A DNA stretch of 64,000 nucleotides from Eledone cirrhosa (lineage: Eukaryota), in contig OZ024742.1 in NCBI GenBank assembly GCA_964016885.1, positions 53,320,001 through 53,384,000 on the forward strand, given 5' to 3'. Numbering within the stretch: position 1 is the first letter of the stretch; each line of letters begins with the position of its first letter. This document shows, in pieces, positions 22,458 through 62,127 of this stretch. The translations under genes and the position numbers were made by a program. The notes beneath the pieces are model-generated. The model was not told where the DNA came from. It did no database searches and worked only from the letters and a program-made list of their open reading frames with translations.

Positions 22458-22670
22458 TATATTAGTAAAAAGGAAAAGAAAATGCTGACAAATTTTTCCC
22501 AGTGAAAAATAGTTTAATTAGGAATAAGTATAAATTAGTAATAAGTATTAGTTTACTAATTTATACTTATTCCTAATTAAACTATTTTTCACTGGGAAAA
22601 ATTTGTCAGCATTTTCTTTTTCTCTTTTTACTAATATATTACAACTCGTGTGTCACACCTCTATTTCTTT
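22458..22670. mobile_element. Fold-back element (~82-bp arms, ~11-bp spacer, short tail) next to (TA)n
   Basis: 22461-22541 is the near-perfect reverse complement of 22553-22636. Confidence 0.75.
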
Positions 22671-24123
22671 TAAGCAGGGAAAAGTGGACGTAAAATGAAA
22701 TGATGATGATAATGATGATATATATATATATATATTATTAGTAGAGCTTAAAAGTTTAAAACTTTTAATTTGTACTAATAATAAATATTTGCTCTATGGG
22801 TTTATCCAACCCTCCATTTTTTATTGTGGCACCAAAACGACCATCTAACAGAGTGGACTGGATGCTTATTCATCGTGTCACCAGCATGATCACCTTACAA
22901 GGTGGACTGGGTGCTTTTGCATGTCACCAACACAACTTACAGGTATGATGGATTCGGTGCTTTTGTTGTTATAGTACCAGCTCACCATACTGAGGTGAAC
23001 TTTGTTATTTGTTGGCATAGTGTGGCAGGAGAGATGTATGAGAGGCAAGGAATGAACATGCGGGGATGGAGAAAGGAGGAGAATAAGTTCTCAGGTTTGA
23101 CATGGGTGAGCTGTAAGGGTTATTTAGCTGGTGAGGAGTGGATGGGAGGTATTAAGATTGGGGAGGGCTAAAGAGCAGAAGATTGGTACAGATTAGTGCC
23201 CTCTGCATATTTGTTTCATCCTGTGCACATGGGAGGGTGGGTCTCCTTCAGTACCGCACAATGCCAGTGATCTCAATCCTGTGTCATCTCCTTTGTGAGA
23301 TTTAATTAAGCCAGGTCAGTTTTAATCCCTTCATCTCAAACTTTACTAGGTTTTCCTCTTCCATAGTTTCCGTCGACTTTATGTGCTTTGTATCTTTTGG
23401 TAATTATTTTGGTCTTAATTTATGTTGCCATAGCAGTTTATTGATATTGTTGCTTTTATTTTGTTTTTTTTTGTTGTATTGCTTACATATGTTTTAATTA
23501 TTTTATTTTATTTTATTTATTTATTTTTTCCTCTATTTATTTATTCATTTACTTTTGTTCTTTTTATTTAGTTTTAATTTATTTAATTTTTTTTTGTTTT
23601 GCTTTTTTTAATTTATTTTTTTGGCAACAGAAATTTGGAAGAGTTTATAACAGAAAGCTTTTGATAAGCAGCCACTGTCAATGGCATGCATGTAAGTGAT
23701 CATTAGATGCAGGAACTGTTATTTTGGTAAGCAGTTTTTTTTTTTGTTTTTCTGTTTATTATATTTTTATTTCTATCTGGAAAATAAACCAAACTTATTT
23801 TAAAAAAAGGTTCTTTTTAAAATTCTTGTCTATGCAATCATTATAAAGGTGAGGTCTTTTATTCAACAGTTTCTATGGTTGAATGGGAATCTTTCCGAAT
23901 GATTATCTATACATGTCTTGAATAAAACAACAACATTGATGAAGAGGAATTAAATAGCTGTTAAATCTAGTTAGATCTCAAGCAGCTGTTTTACTTCTAG
24001 TGATATGTGTGTGTGTGTGTGTGTGTATAAGTATGTATATATTATACAGGACTAGAAGTGTTTCATTCTTATGAAATCATCAGGATTTCATATATTTATA
24101 TATTTTCATTGGGAATCCACCCA

Positions 24124-24165
<42 letters not shown>

Positions 24166-24380
24166 TATGTATGTATGTATACGTACATACATATATGTAT
24201 ACAGACGTACAGTAGTATGTATATATATACATACATGCACACATATATATATGCACGTATTGGTTTACCGAACATTTATTATAATGCTCGGTTTGTTTGT
24301 AAACAAACAAACAGCCCGAATTGCGCGGTACAGTGTTTAGGCAGCCACGTCACCTTTTTGTTCAACACTGACACTGGAAC

Positions 24381-24419
24381 GATGTACTAGTTTCAAGCTT
24401 ATTAGCTATCGTCAGCATC
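24381..24419 (-). ncRNA. Minimal type I hammerhead ribozyme (inverted copy, CUGACGA core)
   Basis: Reverse complement gatg-CTGACGA-tagctaataagctt-GAAACTAGTA-catc. Confidence 0.8.
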
Positions 24420-24639
24420 GTATTCCTTCCTGCCAGATGGTTGAACGTCTGAAAGTATATACTTTCCTTATGCATATTAACGGCTGAGCAGCCTAATTTG
24501 TCATTCTATTCCATTTATCGTTTTCGGTGTGCCCGGCCGACTGAACTCACTCGATATGCAAATTAGGCCGCTCAGCCGTTAATATGCATAAGGAAAGTAT
24601 ATACTTTCAGACGTTCAACCATCTGGCAGGAAGGTATAC

Positions 24640-24678
24640 GATGCTGATGATAGCTAATAAGCTTGAAACTAGTACATC
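24640..24678 (+). ncRNA. Minimal type I hammerhead ribozyme
   Basis: gatg-CTGATGA-t agct aata agct t-GAA-ACTAGT-A-catc: stem I gatg/catc, palindromic stem III, GUA cleavage triplet. Confidence 0.8.
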
Positions 24679-24952
24679 TTCCTGTGTCAGTGTTGAACAA
24701 AAAGGTGACGTGTTGCCTAAACACTGTACCGCGCAATTCGGGCTGTTTGTTTGTTTACAAACAAACAAACCGAGCATTATAATAAATGTTCTGTAAACCG
24801 ATACGTGCATATATATATGTGTGCATGTATGTATATATATACATACTACTGTACGTCTGTATACATATATGTATGTACGTATACATACATACTTACATTT
24901 AAGTAAGTGCCGTACTAAGAGTGAGAAATGAAATTTAGTTTCATTCTATTCC

Positions 24953-24955
<3 letters not shown>

Positions 24956-25050
<95 letters not shown>
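24956..25050. repeat. (TA)n(TAGA)n compound microsatellite
   Basis: Direct reading. Confidence 0.95.
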
Positions 25051-25360: not shown

Positions 25361-27082
25361 TATATATATATATAATTTATACAATGTACATGACAATCAA
25401 AGAGTGTGTAGCAAGCAATAGTGCTACTTTATTACGTCGGGGTCACCACTTTTGTAATAAGTACTTTTGTTCTAATGGTAGCAGAAAGGTGTTCAAGAGA
25501 GATTTACAATGGTACAATTAATAAAGGTAGCAATTCGATGTTGGACTGATATGTTAGTAGTGATTACTACTTCAGGAAAATGGAGATGTCTTGCAAGCAG
25601 GGAAAAGCGGACGTAAAATGATGATGATGATATTCCATAGTAACGGAAAAGAACAGAAGGCATATTTCAAATCATAATAAAGATTTATTTTCTTCTTCAT
25701 ATTAATACAAGTACAAGGCAAGTGAAGAGCTGCAAACATATTGTATAATCAAATTGAACGATAAATGTAATTCTCCGCAGAGTCATATATCAAGATTACC
25801 CTCGGCTTTAGAGGGCAAGATCGAGAAAATCAGGCAGCGAGTTACACGGTACTGCTCAGTAGAAGATCTCGAACGTAACTGCGGGATGCGCACTTCAGCC
25901 CAGCCTTCGTGCATGAGACACATGGCTTACATCTATCACTCTCATCTACCCTCCCCCACTTCTTTGCCTTGAAAGAACAAAGGTCCAGCTTTCACACATG
26001 CGCTCTTCGATCCAGCCTTTGCGCAAGCACACTTAGAAACAATTAATTACTTACATCTATCTAAACTATAAAAAAGTAAGAGGTGCGGGGCTGCGTACGG
26101 TTTATTTCTTTTAATAGAGTTAGTAAAATAAGTTGGATTACTTTGAATAAATAATTGTTTCTACTTTAGGCACAAGGCCAGCAATTACCCAATGCATTAC
26201 TGGTACTTTATTTTATCGACCCCGTAAGGATGAAAGGCAAAGTTAACCTTGGCGGGATTTGTACTCAGAATGGCAAGGGCTGTAACTCTATATGTCAAAG
26301 CATGGCGTCCGACCCTAATGAATGAATATTACATAATTTATGTACTAAATTGAATTTAATATAAATATTAATATAAATAATTTTATTGCTAATTCAAAAT
26401 TGACTTCTTTTCAAAGTTTCAAATTTCTACACTTCCAGTATATCGCTACCACCACCACCACCTTCAACTACCATATATATAAAAAGAGAGAGTGTGTTAT
26501 GAGAGAGATACAGATAGCATGATTATGATTTTCTACACGTTTTCTACACGTATCTATGTGTATGTGCACATACATACATCTGTATGTATGAGTATATAAC
26601 TATTATGAGTATATAACTATAATCGCGCAAACACAAACTTATAAAAATACATGCTCATGGACATTCACACAAATACGCATACTTTCACACATATACTTTC
26701 ACACAAACGCATTCATCCATCCACACATATACATTTACACAGACACACACATACAGTCAAGATAGCAGTGTTTGGTGAATTGGAAATTGGAGGGTAAAAC
26801 AAGTATAACGTTTTATTATTTATTAACTTCATGATCTAAGTTCAAATCCTGCCAAAGTTAACTTTGCCTTTCATCCTTACGGGGTCCATAAAATAAAGTA
26901 CCAGTAATGTACTGGTTAATTCCTGGCCTTGTGCCAAAAGTAGAAACAATTATTTATTAACTCTTTTTTTTAAAAACTCATTTAATATAATGGTTACAGA
27001 ACGAAAACACTAACAAATATAATATATACAAAGGAAAGAGAAAAAATACACAAGCATGTAATACACACATCTAAGACCACAT

Positions 27083-30449: not shown

Positions 30450-30654
30450 TGCGTCCGACTGCTTAACACCGGGAGCTGCCCAAAACGCGTCCTCACCGTA
30501 TGCTGGTCACCACTAGAGAGAGGCCTTCTCCTGGCCCTTCCGGTCGAGCATCCTTCCGGTCAAAGACCCCTTCCGGTCGAGCACTCAAAAACCCCTTCCG
30601 GTCGAGCACTCCCCCCCCCCGCCCCCGGCCACCGCACTCCACACCATACCCACA
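30450..30654 (-). repeat. 3' LTR
   Basis: Direct repeat of 34337-34550 with a few substitutions and a poly-C length change. Contains 4x ccttccggtc. Confidence 0.95.
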
Positions 30655-30668
30655 CGCCCCCCCTGATC

Positions 30669-33540
30669 TCAAGGATCAATTTCCCCCTCGTCCCTCTGCA
30701 TATGAAAGTCTGCCGTCCAGGTCGGTGGTCTACGACTTTGTTGCGATCTTCGTAGTATTGGGGCAGGGCTCTGGGTTTCCACCTCATCTTGGGTTTCCTC
30801 TTCCTCGGAGTCCGTCGATACAGTGATTCTTCTTACATCCAGGACATGACGTGGTACCCCGTCCACGGACACATTGTTCTTTGAATTTACGGCCGTCACC
30901 GTTCCCCTTCCCCATTGAGATGTGCACCGTGCATCTGGGGGCTTAACCCAGACTTCTTCGCCTACCTGCACGAATGCACTCTCTCCCCACTGGCCGTTGT
31001 GGTAGCGTGCACGGGTGCCGCCACTCGTATTTGAATACTGCTCTGTGTGGCACCGATTCCTCGACCTGTCCAACCCGAGGGGACATATTGTACCAGAACA
31101 CTACCTCCATTGGTGAGATATGGCCCCGCTCCGCCATTGCCTTGATCGTCCGGTGGTGTCGCTCCACGATTACATTCCCGCTCGGCCTGTGCGCCGCTCT
31201 GAAGAAACGGTCCACCTTCCATCCCTCGAGCATCCCCCTCAGTACCTCCGAGCGGAACGCTGCGCTGTTGTCCATCAGCAGTTCATCCACAGGGCCCCGC
31301 TCCAAGAACACCTCTCTCAACGTCCGCACGATTTCCTCGGCCGTTCCAGTCTTCATCTCCCTCCCTATCGCCACTCGACCCGGTCCACAGTCGACCATCG
31401 AGAGGTACGTTCCCTGCCGGTAGTGCGTCACATCCACCGCTAATCGCTTCCAGTCGCGATCCACCGGGAGGCTTCCCGTTTCGTGTACACCCGGGGCGGG
31501 ATCAATGGACTGACATCGGACGCAGCCTCTAACGACCCCCCGAACACTGTGTCTGCTAACGTCCGAGTCGATTCTCCTGGCTAGGAACAGGCTCCTATCC
31601 ACCCCCATGTGGTGCATGTCATGCAACCCCTTCAGGTCTAACTCGGTCAGCCGACACACGGTAGCTATCTCATCCTCTACCTCCTCCGGCGCTTCCATCC
31701 AGGCTTTCTTCACTCTAGTTAAGATGTCCGCCCTATTTTTCTCTGAAGGCACGAACACTACGCTCAGCTTCAGGTCGAACTCGGTGGCCAGCTCTCCTAA
31801 CGTTCCCAGGCGGCGCTTTATCAGCATCTCCGCCGCGCCTCTCGTTCGCACTCTCTTCTCACTGGTGAGCACTGATCTTACCCATCCGAGTACGGTAGCC
31901 GAGTCGGTGCGTATCTCGATGGTGCGCAGCCCCCACCGCAGGGCGAGGTTCACCCCTCTCAACACCGCGTCCAGCTCGGCCACATTGATGTGGCTGCACT
32001 CGTCCTTCTTTCTAAGCCAGGCTGCATCCTCGACCTCAACACCTCCTATCTCCAACGTGACACCCAGCGCTATGCTGCTGGCATCGCACCATGCGGTCCC
32101 GCTCCGTGATTTGGGAACGTACCAGCGTCCCCGCACTGGGTCGTCGGCCTTCACCCTCCCCATGATCTCCTGCATCATGGCCACCATTCTCTCTCCCACT
32201 CTGTCACTCCAAGTCACCCCTCCCGCTCGTCTCTTGACATAGCTGCATGCCGTCCGGAGCCACCCAGCGATCGGGTAGTGACCCACCAGCTTTCCACACA
32301 CCGAGAAAAGCTCCCGCCTATTCATACTTGGGCCCAGTTCCGGAACTTCGTTTCCCCTCTGGAACACCAAAACGCCCGTCTTATCTCGCCGTAGCCTAAG
32401 TCCCAGCGCGACTCCTCCCTCCAATGCTTCTGATGGCTTCGCAGTCAGTCCATACCTCCGCAAATGGCTCGTGACCTCCGCCGTCGACACCACCGACTCG
32501 TCCACTAGGATGTCGTCAATGTAGGAGTTAGTAGCCCTCTTTATCTTGTCGGCCCTCCCCAGAGCGGTCTTGAGGACCGCCGCCATGATCTTCGGTGCGG
32601 AGCTCAGCCCAAAACCGAGCCTGGTCAGGCAATATGTCCGGCCCTTATACCTGACTAGCTGATACCGCCAGAGCTTCTCATCTATATGCAACTGCAAGTA
32701 AGCCGACTTTAGATCCACGATCGCTGAACCCCCCGTCATGCGTCTCCACTCACGCAGGGTTTCCCCACAGACATCCGTGACCTCGCCACCCGTGTGGCAT
32801 GACACGTGCTCGTTCAGCTCTCGATAGTCCAGCACCGGCCTCACCTTGCTCTTTGTGGGTTGCACCACCGCCATCAACGGCAATACTCCGCACTTCACCT
32901 CCTCCTTCCAGGGAAGCAGTATGCCCTCTTCGATCCATCTCTCTACTTCTCGCTCGAACTCGCCCCTAGCGTTTCCCTTCAATGTGTGTTGATAGCAGCC
33001 CACTTTGGTCTTCAGTGTTGGTGGTTCTCCCTTCCAGTACCACTCAACAACCCATCGCTGCCCATCAAACACGGCCTTGAAGTCCTTGTCCTGTACAGTG
33101 TAAGCGGGGTATTGCTCCTCGTGGGCCTTCTGGTTCTCATGACGTGCACTCACAGCGCATACCGATGCAGCAGCGCCAAACGACACACCAACATTGTTCA
33201 CCGTGACGCCCCCTAGACGGCCAATCGCGTCCATGCCCATAACCACGCCGATCCCATCCACCACACTGTCTACCACGATGGCGGAAAGCCTTATCGTCCT
33301 TCCCCGTACCGCTATTTCCATCTCGCTGCGACCTCGGCATTCAATTTTCCTGCCGTCGACTGCCCTTACGCTGCTCTTCCCTCCCCACCTCTGCGCCACC
33401 CCCGCGGTCACCAGTGTCGTCGTACAGCCCCTATCCACGAGGGCTCGCTGTGGCTCCCCCCTCACGAAGACTTCCACCACAGGCAGCGCCGCTACTCGTA
33501 AGGGGCAACTACCGGCGCAGTAGTTCCCCTTGGACCGTTT
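30669..33540 (-). CDS. pol: Pol polyprotein (protease, RT, RNase H, integrase), with one frameshift near 31000 in the integrase C-terminus
   Basis: ALVDRGCT (protease DTG altered), PVLDYRELN, DLKSAYLQ, GFGLSSAP, YIDDILV, WCDAS, VAELDAV, RTDS, HHCC, LAVDV..LLMDN..VERHHRTIK. VGEEVWVK continues in ORF 30669-31073. Confidence 0.9.
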
Positions 33541-33543
33541 CCC
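33486..33543 (-). promoter_or_regulatory. -1 programmed ribosomal frameshift signal (G GGA AAC + H-type pseudoknot)
   Basis: In-phase slippery heptamer at 33537-33543. Stem ggggaactac/gtagttgcccc, loop gcgccg pairs with downstream cggcgc, and the -1 frame runs into pol. Confidence 0.75.
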
Positions 33544-34186
33544 TGGTCGCAGTTAGTAGCGATGTGGCCTGGTCGCTTACACCGGTAGCAAATTATATCC
33601 GGCTTCGACTCTCTACAGTCTCTAGCCATATGCGGGCCGTGACACCTAAATTCTCGCGAACGGCCGCGTGCCGAGGTTGCCTCCCTTTGACCATTTCGCT
33701 GCCAGGTGTCCTGAGCCTCCGTAGTCGCTATCGCCGCGACACTCTTTTTGGCATCTTCCCCGGGACTTGTTGCAGTTTCACCGCTATGTCGTTCGGAAAT
33801 CCATTGATGAATGCCAACCGCACCGTGCGTTCGCATTCCGCCTGGTAACCCGCCAACATAGCCAACCGCCTTATTTCCGCTGCGAAAATGTCGACGCGCT
33901 CACCATTCCACCTGATTCTCGCCAGCTTAGCAAAAGCCGCCAACGGTCCCTCGGCGAATGCATCCATCAGACGCCTCTCGATCTTCTGCACATCTCTTTG
34001 GCTGTGCTCGTCCAACTCAAGGAAGAGTACCAACGCGTCGCCCTCGAGGTACAATGCAATGAGACCGGCCACATCTTCTATCTTCTGCAAGCCCGCGACC
34101 AGCCGAACCTTCCGCAGCCAAGCGACAACATCACCTTCCCCGGTGAATGGCCTGATAGCTTCGTTCATCCGTAGTCTTGTCGCCAT
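33492..34186 (-). CDS. gag: Gag (frameshifted near 33770) with C-terminal zinc knuckles
   Basis: IRPFTGEGDVVAWL..LYLEGDA..AFINGFP, then RCHGPHMARDC and CYRCKRPGHIATNC. Confidence 0.85.
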
Positions 34187-34336
34187 CTTTTGATTTGTTT
34201 TGCGGCAAGTGTTTTCTTTTTCTTTCTTTTTTTTTTTTTTTTAGTCGCCGAAATAGCTTGTGGTTAGAAAAAGCTATCTCACTTACCGCTTTTCACAGGC
34301 GCCGCTAAATTCCACTGCAGGTACTCCTCTTCCACG

Positions 34337-34550
34337 TGCGTCCGACTGCTTAACACCGGGAGCTGCCCAAAACGCGTCCTCACCGTATGCTGGTCACCAC
34401 TAGAGAGAGGCCCTCTCCTGGCCCTTCCGGTCGAGCATCCTTCCGGTCAAAGACCCCTTCCGGTCGAGCACTCAAAAACCCCTTCCGGTCGAGCACTACC
34501 CCCCCCCCCCCCCCCCTCCCCCGGCCACCGCACGCCACATCATACCCACA
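34337..34550 (-). repeat. 5' LTR
   Basis: TGTGGGTATG...GGACGCA on the - strand, followed by TGG-starting putative PBS. Confidence 0.95.
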
Positions 34551-36253: not shown

Positions 36254-37132
36254 CAGGGTGAGGACGATATTTGTTCGCAATTTTCAATTGCTAATTTTAT
36301 GCAAATTTTTTTTACTTCCATTGTCACTCTTGTCTTCATAAAAACAGTGACTATATTTTCAGAATAATTGATTATGAATAATTTTGAACCTCCAAATTTG
36401 TGGAAGAGTCATGGAGTTCTTCTTGGAATCCGCGCCGGGAGGACAAATAAGGAAATTTCAGACTTTCTCAGCGTCAGCAGGAGAATGGTGTCTCATCCAA
36501 AGACGTGCCCAGAGTCATGCAGACAAAGTTTCCAGTGACAACATTGGTCTTAGGTGTCATCAGCAGTCAAGGTGACGTCATGCCACCTCACTTCTTCCCT
36601 GAGTGCCTCAAGCTGAACACCGATGGCTACATCCGCATTCTGAGTGAGGTAGTAAAGCCCTGGATCGACCAGATTGCTGCAGGTAGGCCGTACGTGTGGC
36701 AGCAAGGCTCAACGCCCTGTCATACCAGCCGAAAGACCCAAGCCTGGCTGTCAGAGAACTTCGTCAACCACACTTTATCTGACATCTGGCCTCCCGGCTC
36801 GCCTGACTGCAACCCCCTCGACTTCTTTGTGTGGGGCGCAGTGAAACGAGACACCAACAGATCTAGCTGCAATACGAAAGACGATCTGAAGGCCAAGATC
36901 ACAAGTGCCTTTAGGGGCCTAAGTCGGGGGACAGTGACGAAGGCCTGTAGCCGGTTCCGAGGCCGCCTTGAGGCCGTCATCAAAGCCAATGGTGGGTTTA
37001 TCGAGTGAGATCGAAAGAAAAAGTCATGGAGACAAACCGACCCAAGTTTGATAAATATATCTTAAAAAATAAAACTACTGTGTTATTTTTTCCTAGACAG
37101 TAATCTTGCGAACAAATATCGCCCGCACCCTG
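36254..37132 (+). mobile_element. Internally deleted DD37D (maT) transposon
   Basis: TA|cagggtgaggacgatatttgttcgcaa...ttgcgaacaaatatcgcccgcaccctg|TA. Lacks ~415 bp relative to the 38030 copy. Confidence 0.9.
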
Positions 37133-37140
37133 TATATATA

Positions 37141-37623
37141 TAGTGAAAGAGTGAAGAATAACTTGGCCGGTTGTACAAAAAGGGTTTTATTTACAGTATT
37201 AACAATTGTTTCATTGATCAGGTGAGTCTAAAGGTCGATAATCACTCAAAGCTGCGTTTCTCGACCTTAAATACAGTGTGTGTCTCTGATCAAATCATCA
37301 TGAGTATTCCGATGATTTGATCTGAGACACACATTGTATTTAAGGTTGAGTGATGCAATTTTGAGTGATCAGTAGCCTTTAGACTCACCTGATCAATGAA
37401 ACAATTGTTAATACTGTAAATAAAACCCTTTTTGTACAGCCCACCATGTTATTCTTCCCTCTTTCACTACTATTACTCCAAGAATAACCTGCATGAGAAT
37501 TCTTGCAAACTTGTTACCTAACTATGGAAACCTTGTTGAGTCAAACAACGCCGTACGTTAAAACTATCCATAGTACAGAGTACTCACAACCTCTAACTGG
37601 ATTACCTAAAACGATAACTTGTT
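37141..37623 (+). mobile_element. Fold-back hammerhead element (159-bp arms + 154-bp tail) in (TA)n
   Basis: 37141-37299 inverted versus 37311-37469. Hammerhead-like 37303-37415, with AATAAA at ~37419. Confidence 0.75.
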
Positions 37624-37974
37624 ATATATATATATTTGTATATATATATACACACACATACAAACACACAGTTCTTGTAGGTGTCACAACAAAAAAAGAC
37701 CCAGTCCACACTGTAAAGTGGTCGTGTAGAGGACATGGTAAAACGCTCCCAGTCCACACTGTAAATGTGGTTGGTGTTAAGAAGTGCATCCAACTGTAGA
37801 AAACCTTCCAGATACAGTACTATGTGAGTGAGACACGGTCACCCAATCAATCTTGCCTCAAGTGGGACAATTCCCGTCTAACCCATGCTAGCATGGAAGA
37901 TAGACGTGAAACGATGTTGATGATGATGATATATTTATATACATACATATATGTATATACATATATTTATAAAC

Positions 37975-38029
<55 letters not shown>

Positions 38030-38032
<3 letters not shown>

Positions 38033-39336
38033 GGTGTGGACGATATTTGTTCGCAATTTTCAACTGCTAATTTTATGCAAATTTTTTTTACTTCTGTTGT
38101 CACTCTTGTCTTCCTAAAAACAGTGACTATATTTCCATTATTTATTTTCAGAATAATTGATTATGAATAATTTTGAACCTTCAAATTTGTGGAAGAGACA
38201 CAGAGTTCTTCTTGGAATCCACACCGGGAGGACAAATAAGGAAATTTCAGACTTTCTCAGCGTCAGCAGGAGAATGGTGGAAAAGGTCAGAAAGGAATTG
38301 GAAGATTCAGGATTCGACTACGAAGCAACATCAGAGAGGAAAACACATGATCGACGATCTGACGCCTTCAGAATGCCCGAGTTCGTCGCTGAAGTTCAGG
38401 ATATCATCAACAATGAACCTAGCAAGTCGATGCGTGCCATTGCAAGGGAGAAAGGTGTGGATGAAAAGCTCATTAGGCTGGTGGTACATGAAGACATTCG
38501 CTACGTTTCATACAAGATGAGGAAAGGACAATTTCTGTCAAAGGCGATGCAAGAAAAGCGACTGAAGCACGCAAAGAAGCTGATCAACAAGTTGAAACAC
38601 CCACTGGAGCCAGACATGCTGTGGATTTTCTCCGATGAGAAAACCTTCTGCCAAGACCAGAAGATCAACTCCCACAACAACAGGTGGCTCACTGTCTCAT
38701 CCAAAGTCGCGCCCAGAGTCATGCAGACAAAGTTTCCAGTGACAACATTGGTCTTAGGTGTTGTCAGCAGTCAAGGTGACGTCATGCCACCTCACTTTTT
38801 CCCTGAGGGCCTCAAGCTGAACACCGAATGCTATATCCGCATTCTGAGCGAGGTAGTAAAGCCCTGGATCGACCAGGTAGCTGCAGGTAGGCCGTACGTG
38901 TGGCAGCAAGACTCAGCGCCCTACCATACCAGCTGAAAGACCCAAGCCTGGCTGTCAGAGAACTTTGTCGACCACACTTCACCTGACATCTGGCCTCCCA
39001 GCTCGCCTGACTGCAACCCCCTCGACTTCTTTGTGTGGAGTGCAGTTGAACGTGACACCAACAGATCTAGCTGCAATACGAAAGACGATCTGAAGGCCAG
39101 GATCACAAATGACTTCAGGGGCCTAAGTCAGGGGACAGTGACGAAGGCCTGTAGCCAGTTCTGAGGCCGCCTTGAGGCCGTCATCAAAGCCAATGGCGGG
39201 TTTATCGAGTGAGATCGAAAGAACAAGTCATGAAGACAAACTGACCCAAGTTTGATAAATATATCTTAAAAAATAAAACTACTGTGTTACTTTTTCCTAG
39301 ACAGTAATCTTGCGAACAAATATCATCCGCACCCTG
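38030..39336 (+). mobile_element. Full-length Tc1/mariner DD37D (maT) transposon
   Basis: ~27-bp TIRs, TA flanks, 1307 bp. WIFSDEK, VWQQDSAP, SPDCNPLD with 37 aa between the second and third Asp. Confidence 0.92.
38163..39212 (+). pseudogene. DD37D transposase with two premature TGA stops
   Basis: Stops at 38934-38936 and 39162-39164, both CGA in the 36254 copy. Confidence 0.88.
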
Positions 39337-41914: not shown

Positions 41915-42708
41915 ACCAATACTTCAATGTTTTCCTAATTTGGACATTGTAGAGGATTAACCACTGACCAAAGTCAATATGTTTTTACATCTTAAAGTTT
42001 CCTTTGGGATGTTGTATTGGTAATGTGATATATATATATATATATATACAAATGAATATATGATAGGGATAAACACTGATACAAGTATACATGTGTTCGC
42101 ATTGCAAATGACCAAGTTAGCTAGATTGAAAAATACTAATTAAAATAATACGGTTTGCCTGTCTCGATTTAAAATAATAAATCAATAAAAACAAACCTAT
42201 ATTGGCTGCTATTTTTAGTGGCACAAGTATGGGACGTGCTAGACACTGTGACACATGTGCTTTCAAAACATTTCTCTCAATCTTCTTAAGTATTTTGAAG
42301 TGAAACTTACCAATACTTCAATGTTTTCCTAATTTGGACATTGTAGAGGATTAACCACTGACCAAAGTCAATATGTTTTTACATCTTAAAGTTTCCTTTG
42401 GGATGTTGTATTGGTAATGTGATATATATATATATATATATACAAATGAATATATGATAGGGATAAACACTGATACAAGTATACATGTGTTCGCATTGCA
42501 AATGACCAAGTTAGCTAGATTGAAAAATACTAATTAAAATAATACGGTTTGCCTGTCTCGATTTAAAATAATAAATCAATAAAAACAAACCTATATTGGC
42601 TGCTATTTTTAGTGGCACAAGTATGGGACGTGCTAGACACTGTGACACATGTGCTTTCAAAACATTTCTCTCAATTTTCTTAAGTATTTTGAAGTGAAAC
42701 TTACCAAT
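41915..42708. repeat. 394-bp tandem duplication
   Basis: 41915-42308 = 42309-42702, with accaat microhomology at the junctions. Confidence 0.9.
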
Positions 42709-60177: not shown

Positions 60178-60594
60178 AAGGTGGAACACTGGAAGGTAAT
60201 ATCCGTAGTGGTAGAGCACTCAGTCCATGGGACGAGTTAGATAGAAGTGGTTACACAACAGTTAGTTCACCATACCGCGAACAATTGTTTCACCTTCGCG
60301 GATCTTCAGCTCGGGATGTATATGGTTATAGGAACAGGAAGGACAACCGTACGAACGCGCATGCACAGAAACTCGGTCACTTCACACAGGCAATAGTAGA
60401 CTGCGTGCAGTTATCTTCCTTACACCCCCAGCATGCAGTCTACTATTGCCTGTGTGAAGTGACCGAGTTTCTGCGCATGCGCGTTTGTACGGTTGTCCTT
60501 CCTGTTCCTGTAACCATATACATCCCAAGCTGAAGATCCGCGAAGGTGAAACAATTGTTCTTGGTATGGTGAACTAACTGTTGTGTAACCACTT
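60178..60594 (-). mobile_element. Fold-back hammerhead element (164-bp arms + ~67-bp tail) in (TA)n
   Basis: 60245-60408 inverted versus 60431-60594, hammerhead in each arm. Confidence 0.8.
60525..60564 (+). ncRNA. Minimal type I hammerhead ribozyme
   Basis: ccaag-CTGAAGA-t cc gcgaa gg t-GAA-ACAATTGT-T-cttgg. Confidence 0.75.
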
Positions 60595-62127
60595 ATATAT
60601 ATATATATATATATAAAGGCTTTTTAGATAAAATATTAAACATGTTTACTTTTCTCATTAAACAATATGGAGACATTTTCTACTTTGTTTTACTTCAACA
60701 TTTCTGTAAACATCAGTCTGTTATATCAAGAAATAAAATAAGTATGTTATATATAGTTTACTATATAATATCATCATCACAACTGTTTAACGTCGATTTT
60801 TCCATACTAGCATGGGTTATATGAGTTGTCCCATTGTGAGACAAGCCAGATCAGATGACCATGTCTTGTTCATACAGAAATGATTTTGGCTTGGTTTCTA
60901 TGGCTGGATGCCCTTCTTAACACCAACCAGATTTACAGTGAGTACTGGGTGCTTTTTGTCGTGACACCTGCATGACCACATTACAGTGTGGGCTGGGTGT
61001 TTTTTGTCATGACACCTACATGATCACTTTACAGTGTGGACTGGGTATTTTTTGTTGTGGCACCAAAATGCCCACTTATGTTGGGAAATTCAAGCTAATT
61101 ACCTAATTACTCTAGCGTAAGTTGAAGCTTACTCACGTATTGGTTTTTGTACTAGGAGCTTATCATTTTGAAGAAACAGTTGAAGTTTCAATATTCCATC
61201 AATACTGTAACATTTAACAATATATCAATCCTATTTGCAACATTCTTGGAAGTTTAACCCTTTTACTACGAAACTGCCTAAAACACCCTGCATTTATGGT
61301 ACTAAACTGCTCATTTAAAAATGTTTATAATTATAGTGTTTTGTTTGAAGTACTACAGTGTGAATTGGACAGTAGATGTTAAAAATATGATAAGAATGAT
61401 GTTGGGTGTTACCTTGCAGTTCTTTATAGGTCCTTATATTTCTGAATAAAGTTCCTTCATAAAAAGATTAATTCATTTGGAGCTGTATTTTTGTTGTTGC
61501 TCGTAAGACCCAGTAGCTGCTGTTCCAACAGCACTGCTGGTCAAAACTCATAACCTAATCCTTGATCCCAGAAGGTGACCATAAAATCGAATGACATTCT
61601 TCCTTCTTCATAGCCAACAGTAACAGTGAGGCGAAAATTGAAGAAGAGTGAACAACATCATGCAGTACTAACCCAGAATCCACAAGGAGTCAAAGTACCT
61701 GTTTTGCCTTTAGTTTCAGAGATCAATACACAGAAGCCCTGCTTTCCAACGACCTCCAACACTACCTCCACTACCCCATCATGTTGTGACAATGTAGATA
61801 CAACTGAGGCTAGTGAGGTAGGAGAGAAAAGTACCCCAGAGAAATGTAGAGAAGAAGAAGAGAACCTGAATGAAAGACAGATAAAATATAACCAAATGAG
61901 GAAGACGAAGACAATACACACTTCTCAGAGGGAAAAAAATGATGTGGTACAATAGATATTGTAGAAATGTCTTTGTAAATGAAGATCAATTAAACAAAGA
62001 GTTCAGGAAGACCTCAAGCGATAGACTTCTGATAGAAGTAATCCTTACTTATTCTCATGCACTAATGAAGGGCAGTGAATTGGCAGAATTATTTGAAATA
62101 AAACTTGATTATTATCATGCACTAAAG

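Follow-up and report, generated by a model that had tools for sequence, protein, structure and literature searches.

The window analysed here, a 64,000-nt stretch of Eledone cirrhosa contig OZ024742.1, contains one copy of a dispersed family of non-coding hammerhead repeats that is very probably mobilised by the enzymes of Penelope-like elements (PLEs). Taken singly, this copy is ordinary junk; the weight of the case lies with the family, whose insertions contain no open reading frame (ORF) of such an enzyme and still carry the mechanical signature of PLEs, namely two priming sites, the pairing of a tailed with a tail-less arm in 50 of 53 head-to-head insertions, and TA targets.

Anatomy of the window copy

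The window copy is a head-to-head pair of arms, with an arm that ends at a short 3' site (S) on the left and an arm that ends at a long 3' site (L) on the right. Its features, in window coordinates, are the following.

24128..24161, no strand: (TA)n target tract on the left
24162..24500, minus: inverted arm of 339 nt, truncated at its 5' end, with its 3' end at the S (short, tail-less) site against (TA)n
24379..24421, minus: type I hammerhead of the inverted arm, stem I of 6 bp, intact
24500/24501: arm-to-arm junction
24501..24955, plus: direct arm, 455 nt, made of one 440-nt unit preceded by 15 nt of the unit before it, with its 3' end at the L (long, tailed) site
24501..24515, plus: 15-nt overshoot past one full unit ('terminal redundancy')
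24638..24678, plus: type I hammerhead of the direct arm, with its core at 24644-24674 and a predicted cut after 24674
24781..24786, plus: AATAAA
24802..24882, plus: TA-rich stretch with a long predicted hairpin immediately upstream of the S site
24896..24955, plus: tail of 60 nt, from just after the S site (24895) to the L site (24955)
24956..25050, no strand: right flank, (TA)n and then (GATA)n

An earlier, sequence-only reading had described this locus as a terminally redundant monomer without an ORF that follows an inverted copy of itself in a (TA)n setting, and this description holds. The redundant 15-mer occurs at 24501 and 24941 only in the whole window, with a period of 440 and a repeat that extends neither way; the inverted arm (24165-24500) matches 24559-24896 at 95.9% identity over 340 columns; (TA)n lies on both sides; and the longest ATG ORF is 47-112 aa in trimers of four representative units. 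Identity is ~97.5% between the two arms, and likewise between the arms and further copies of subfamily A. The same reading counted one hammerhead, which was right for the direct arm but overlooked the second, intact one on the minus strand of the inverted arm. The AATAAA that it placed near 24781 is present at 24781-24786; as a poly(A) signal this hexamer was dropped, since it is not conserved, being missing in part of the subfamily C units and in the family D copies examined, and no poly(A) was found at the family ends examined.

The hammerhead of the direct arm has a 4-bp helix II with a U-U at its base and a 2-bp helix III with a palindromic loop, and its stem I is 4 bp long, from a 1-nt deletion, where the family norm is 6 bp. 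A 6-bp helix I, a 4-bp helix II and a 2-bp palindromic helix III make up what is described as the canonical metazoan type I form, which cleaves as a dimer (PMC4209133), and a U-U at the base of helix II is also described for the axolotl hammerhead HHR_Amex2 (PMC7229834). The assignment as a hammerhead is based on the core motif and covariation, and an Rfam scan of the window at E<=1 matched no hammerhead family. Over the unit the scan gave no tRNA or 5S match, and its matches over the TA-rich hairpin, which is predicted in all three subfamilies A, B and C, were to microRNA models far below their gathering scores. The unit has neither the poly(A) or LINE-type 3' tail nor the tRNA or 5S head of a SINE.

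The transcript of the window copy is predicted to fold back on itself with 92% of its positions paired, burying the plus-strand hammerhead. The copy holds one hammerhead per strand and is thus below two consecutive units on one strand, so that it could not by itself give a monomer running from cut to cut. Because of this single hammerhead per strand, the deletion in stem I and the buried plus-strand hammerhead, the window copy is likely a dead end. Elsewhere in the family there are arrays in which two or more hammerhead units follow one another on the same strand, the property by which a 2026 preprint (10.64898/2026.07.22.740005) defines an active retrozyme.

The repeat family and its RNA fold

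When a 300-nt query was compared with the species' own 3.0-Gb genome, 3,495 first-look candidates were obtained, and the 40 that were scored were 97-98% identical. Exact patterns, whose counts tally arms and units rather than insertions, matched the genome 10,478 times for the hammerhead core, 26,224 times for the 28 nt after the cut site, 12,091 times for the tail and 2,485 times for the unit end joined exactly to the unit start, with 0 matches for each reversed control. The family is therefore dispersed, non-coding and, given the first three of these counts against their controls, not a chance motif.

Among the sequences listed, the family divides into subfamilies A (~442 nt, the window's own), B (420-430 nt) and C (466-516 nt); representative units have a GC content of 0.36-0.39, and there is no ORF with reverse transcriptase (RT) and GIY-YIG inside the unit. 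Arrays span 2 to 45+ units of 420-516 nt, and they include very young arrays of 3-9 units with 0-0.7% internal difference as well as some young arrays that hold non-identical units (L141). At two loci (G000:C1:51774500-51800000 and G000:C1:70056000-70077000) there are satellite arrays of at least 45 units each, inside which higher-order repeats of 4 and 6 units occur, and the array at 70 Mb of C1 keeps an inverted S arm at one end. With 2,038 candidates and 66% identity, family D (L271-L295, for example G000:C2:358316994-358317230) is an older sister family of the same layout. Family sequence is also present in contigs of four sequencing runs, which are not recorded as RNA or DNA and whose contigs show neither ends nor circles; in one of these runs (X6) a contig goes back 422 nt, which tandem DNA gives too.

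The hammerhead core and stems are kept in 229 of the 254 instances tallied, all of which were anchored outside the core, and core positions are 96-100% constant, a conservation that is inflated because many loci were picked by the core pattern. In the same tally (229 of 254 instances), one position of stem I varies among U-G, A-U and G-U pairs. When subfamilies A-C are compared with family D, the core is identical, the helix III loop is palindromic in both, the U-U at the base of helix II is replaced by A-A, and the hammerhead of family D is fully covarying, with U at the cleavage position. Pairs altered on both sides number 5 of 24 in the hammerhead region in this comparison. Over the whole unit, with its 118 predicted pairs, they number 7, among them a long-range helix that reaches into the tail and is compensated also in family D. 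Both counts are inflated by the relatedness of the sequences, which do not represent independent events. Circular folds of representative units are 64-69% paired and have z-scores of -6.4 to -8.0 against 25 dinucleotide shuffles each, values which may derive largely from the TA-rich hairpin. Judged from such comparisons, the fold of the unit RNA appears to be under selection, and the type I hammerhead is predicted to cut itself.

Insertion ends and the link to Penelope-like elements

Copies of the family end at either of two fixed 3' sites that lie 60 nt apart, S (24895 in the phase of the window) or L (24955). In a first set of 98 clusters, 38 were head-to-head, of which 35 paired L with S, 2 were SS and 1 was LL; the remainder comprised 52 single-stranded clusters (26 L, 22 S and 4 unresolved) and 8 that were unclassified. 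An independent set of 60 clusters, 6 of them unclassified, contained 15 inverted ones, every one of which was L+S, and with both sets pooled a tailed arm is paired with a tail-less arm in 50 of 53 head-to-head insertions. In the replicate set a TA run follows 71 of 79 terminal ends; as the insertion ends abut (TA)n, a target site duplication, which is >4 bp in non-LTR retrozymes when present, is not readable. The 5' ends are spread over the whole unit, with 175 mapped starts that fill all ten bins at 8-27 per tenth, some of which are false in the TA-rich part, where mapping is poor. The 5' flanks of 55 loci have, among the matches listed, only other repeats in common.

These ends revise part of the sequence-only reading, which had seen the direct arm as a permuted monomer taken from a circle and the left arm as its fold-back. 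Circular permutation was rejected, since the 3' ends of copies are fixed at two sites, and the inverted arm is a second, tail-less arm with a 3' end of its own that is likewise fixed. That reading had also expected other copies to be circular permutations or tandem multimers without an ORF, and only the multimers were found elsewhere in the genome. Its placement of the locus among non-autonomous PLE-type insertions in TA microsatellites is supported by the end anatomy, by the TA runs (71/79) and by the L+S pairing (50/53).

The ends bear as well on the view that the family is a satellite or fold-back repeat that spread as DNA, with an incidental hammerhead. Long arrays with higher-order repeats and the lack of an Rfam hammerhead match in the window would suit such a history, but fixed 3' ends combined with variable 5' ends, L+S pairing in 50/53, TA targets and RNA covariation do not; this very improbable view is largely refuted by end polarity.

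PLE insertions are described as truncated at the 5' end, as forming partial tandems, as carrying an inverted copy on the 5' side and a tail on one end, and as biased towards microsatellites (PMC8557442, PMC3846280). In addition, the purified protein of a Poseidon PLE is reported to nick and extend both strands of AT-rich DNA and to begin copying at two internal positions of the RNA, between which the tail lies (PMC11167929). The family described here shows 5' truncation, partial tandems and a head-to-head inverted copy, two fixed 3' ends with a tail on one end only, and a bias towards (TA)n targets, and it fits all non-coding features of PLE insertions.

The E. cirrhosa genome itself holds 10,595 GIY-YIG candidates. 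Both RT and GIY-YIG are found in four of five scanned PLE ORFs, the fifth being RT alone, and most PLE translations of this genome contain a cysteine linker, which suggests that its PLEs are Neptune-type. Two ORF-bearing PLE families of this genome have two ends of their own, with tails of ~40 and ~64 nt, and also inverted insertions that pair L with S, and it is because the unit family shares such fixed ends and such tailed and tail-less pairing that it is regarded as a non-autonomous, PLE-mobilised non-LTR retrozyme. Another PLE family (L251-L270), which is young and abundant, with many intact ORFs of ~900 aa, is not homologous to the unit; its pLTR carries a hammerhead-like core, its tail is ~45 nt long, and it is a candidate for the active enzyme source. 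The PLE-type hammerheads at L060, L064, L065, L068, L074 and L078 have a U-U that replaces G-C at the base of helix II. Within the window, 22467-22665 is a short head-to-head 3' fragment of the ORF-bearing PLE family B, with its tail-less end on the left and its tailed end on the right.

The unit could instead be the pLTR or 3' end of an ORF-bearing PLE and its copies the truncated insertions of that element, an outcome which the sequence-only reading had named as contrary to its own proposal. All of the insertion hallmarks are those of PLE ends; no element with the unit as its pLTR was found among 70 PLE loci (30 + 20 + 20) of about eight families, a sample so small beside >10,000 GIY-YIG candidates that a rare parent may be missed. 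This explanation is nevertheless improbable given the 2,485 exact joins of the unit to its own start, the 5' junctions without common upstream sequence, and the arrangement of the copies that lie near PLE sequences. Among the 70 PLE loci, three (L055, L071 and L252) have a unit relative nearby, and these were rejected as unit-ORF fusions, the two being nested neighbours that are separated by TA tracts or oppositely oriented. PLE protein matches are found at 25 of 200 unit loci (overlapping loci included), and the 8 of these that were viewed are not fusions, with TA tracts or inversion junctions in between and start points that vary. Two particular partners were also set aside: PLE family G lies near many copies, yet in each of the 8 viewed a TA tract or another junction stands between the two, and a likeness of 12-14 nt to the end of family B appeared to fit both priming sites, but the ends of family B itself lie elsewhere.

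Circular and linear templates

On balance, we favour an account in which a PLE RT/GIY-YIG protein acting in trans made the 5'-truncated head-to-head insertion from a ribozyme-cut and re-ligated circular RNA. Tandem loci of the unit would be transcribed, adjacent hammerheads, paired as dimers by way of their palindromic helix III, would cut, and the resulting monomer would be closed; the PLE protein would nick (TA)n and use the S site to prime on one strand of the target and the L site to prime on the other, and the two truncated cDNAs would be joined head to head. The L-primed enzyme would often stall 9-44 nt after a full turn, which would give the 455 nt of the window copy.

Of 30 matches just downstream of the cut, several of them from one array, 29 retain the complete upstream hammerhead and none starts at the cut, which points to a template that was continuous across this site, whether uncut or re-ligated. 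The cDNA-like arms read through the boundaries between units as well. A linear monomer cut by the hammerhead was rejected as the template, as 5' ends do not pile up at the cut: 7 of the 175 mapped starts lie within 5 nt of it, and 4 of these 7 are mapping artefacts.

The lengths of the tailed arms also bear on the template. Among L arms of at least 300 nt, 10 of 29 (one locus duplicated) stop 0-44 nt past a whole unit, a class into which the 455-nt L arm of the window falls, and the same was found for 8 of 27 in a replicate of loci fetched afterwards as a test (10% expected, p=0.004). The S arms that start in the same zone number 2/35 and 2/26 (L vs S, Fisher p=6e-4), and S arms have no matching one-turn excess (4/35 and 3/26). 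A stop 9-44 nt past a whole unit is about three times as frequent among tailed arms as expected by chance, in a tally that is small, excludes 43 arms with unclassified ends and includes one duplicated locus. This excess of L arms hints at a circular template, and a circular RNA is in our estimate a moderately probable one; the lack of an excess among S arms is not accounted for by a simple circle.

The proposal that the window copy was reverse transcribed once around a circle is helped by the replicated excess of L arms past a whole unit, but not by the 15-nt redundancy that had suggested it. This redundancy is the truncation point of the direct arm and not proof of a circle, since a linear tandem precursor gives an identical one. 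A dimer-circle reading of ABAB arrays (L143, L142) was likewise set aside as non-diagnostic once higher-order satellite repeats were seen, because amplification at the DNA level can explain such arrays. The satellite arrays of at least 45 units imply that DNA-level amplification happens and that long linear templates are available.

It is possible, though in our view less probable, that this same PLE-mobilised family uses uncut linear read-through of tandem or satellite loci as its template, with the hammerhead acting at another step or yielding only by-product circles. Insertion by the Poseidon protein in vitro works without hammerhead cleavage, unprocessed RNA being its main template (PMC11167929), and arrays of 45+ units exist in this genome, where non-identical units recur inside young arrays; the fixed 3' ends, the tail pairing and the reading across the cut site would fit equally. 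Under linear read-through it is hard to see why L arms, and not S arms, stop just past whole units, or why compensatory changes would have preserved a ribozyme across 34% divergence in a sequence without another job. In favour of a circle, circular RNAs of such units are reported from coral, mussel and axolotl (PMC7229834), and in the present family the ribozyme is conserved although cDNA reads through its cut; against it, 8 of 9 predicted Xenopus retrozyme dimers are reported as uncut in vitro (10.64898/2026.07.22.740005).

A more specific form of the circular account can be offered tentatively, in which the family is an active retrozyme and its copies record rolling-circle reverse transcription of a ribozyme-made circle by a Penelope-like dimer. 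Each subunit might prime one of the two target strands from a fixed site of its own, and the subunit primed at the tail might stall after one, two or three turns, on meeting the complex at the place where it had started. If this were true, the genome itself would count the turns around the circle.

Known retrozymes and neighbouring repeats

The type of element is known already, as a non-LTR retrozyme, and the specific unit family is an addition to it. In the features tested the family fits this class, as it is ORF-less and tandem, with a type I hammerhead and a self-paired predicted circle. Like the metazoan non-LTR retrozymes described by Cervera and de la Pena (2020, PMC7229834), which include units of 350-390 nt in mussel and the axolotl Rtz_353 with HHR_Amex2, it consists of non-coding tandem units of a few hundred nt with a GC content <50% and one type I hammerhead per unit, a short palindromic helix III, a highly self-paired predicted circle and the U-U helix II base of HHR_Amex2. 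Its units are slightly longer (422-516 nt) than those described there, its circles and cleavage are only predicted, and most of its copies are dispersed insertions of 1-2 units, 5'-truncated or inverted in (TA)n with a PLE tail.

That animal retrozymes descend from PLEs has been put forward before, in the 2026 preprint (10.64898/2026.07.22.740005). As in the vertebrate retrozymes described there, monomers of the present family are dispersed, multimers are clustered and both co-occur with PLEs, whose machinery was proposed to be borrowed. In the literature consulted, the use of PLE enzymes is suggested, and not shown, from shared hammerheads, co-occurrence and pLTR trees; the vertebrate link consists of co-occurrence and pLTR similarity, whereas here it consists of insertion anatomy, and no homologous pLTR was found among the 70 PLE loci.

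The family also resembles the EN+ PLEs as described for Penelope/Poseidon, Neptune, Nematis and Hydra (PMC8557442, PMC3846280, PMC11167929) in its 5' truncation, partial tandems and inverted arms, and in its optional tail at one end, (TA)n bias and type I hammerhead upstream of the priming sites; unlike them, it has no RT/GIY-YIG ORF, a tail of 60 nt rather than 30-40 nt, and a unit that repeats on itself. Derivatives of PLEs in Chlamys such as MRC1 are likewise ORF-less, with multicopy head-to-tail insertions made by PLE enzymes, but they are described as usually resembling an autonomous family at the 3' end and as mostly being without canonical hammerheads (PMC8557442), whereas the present unit has a conserved hammerhead, and no autonomous family that matches its 3' end was found.

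In the retrozyme literature, consulted mostly at the level of titles, no report was found of the tail pairing, the one-turn stall or this unit family, and a word search of the available text of an octopus repeat annotation (PMC13282606) gave no mention of ribozymes or retrozymes; the family may already be catalogued in Repbase or Dfam as a Penelope or unknown repeat. Because it combines a PLE signature without an ORF with near-identical young arrays, it is a good test system for the action of PLE RT on circular RNA.

Several other repeats lie in the same window. At 24040-24095 on the minus strand, 70 nt to the left of the locus, there is a degenerate hammerhead of another small family, with similar sequences in 15 fetched loci, several of them inverted pairs. 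A third hammerhead family is represented at 60238-60601 by a head-to-head insertion with arms of 90% identity that ends in (TA)n; its arms each carry a hammerhead-like core (60530, plus; 60309, minus), and related sequences occur in 7 fetched loci. Other repeats comprise a common inverted repeat at 26146-26958, with 124-nt arms 565 nt apart and similar sequences in 70 fetched loci, and a tandem pair of 394-nt copies at 41915-42708 with 99% identity. The minus-strand stretch 30535-34497 is presumably a Gypsy-like LTR retrotransposon, its 869-aa frame being protease-, RT- and integrase-like by its motifs, and, on the same basis, two fragments at 36451-38936 are taken to be of mariner-like transposases.
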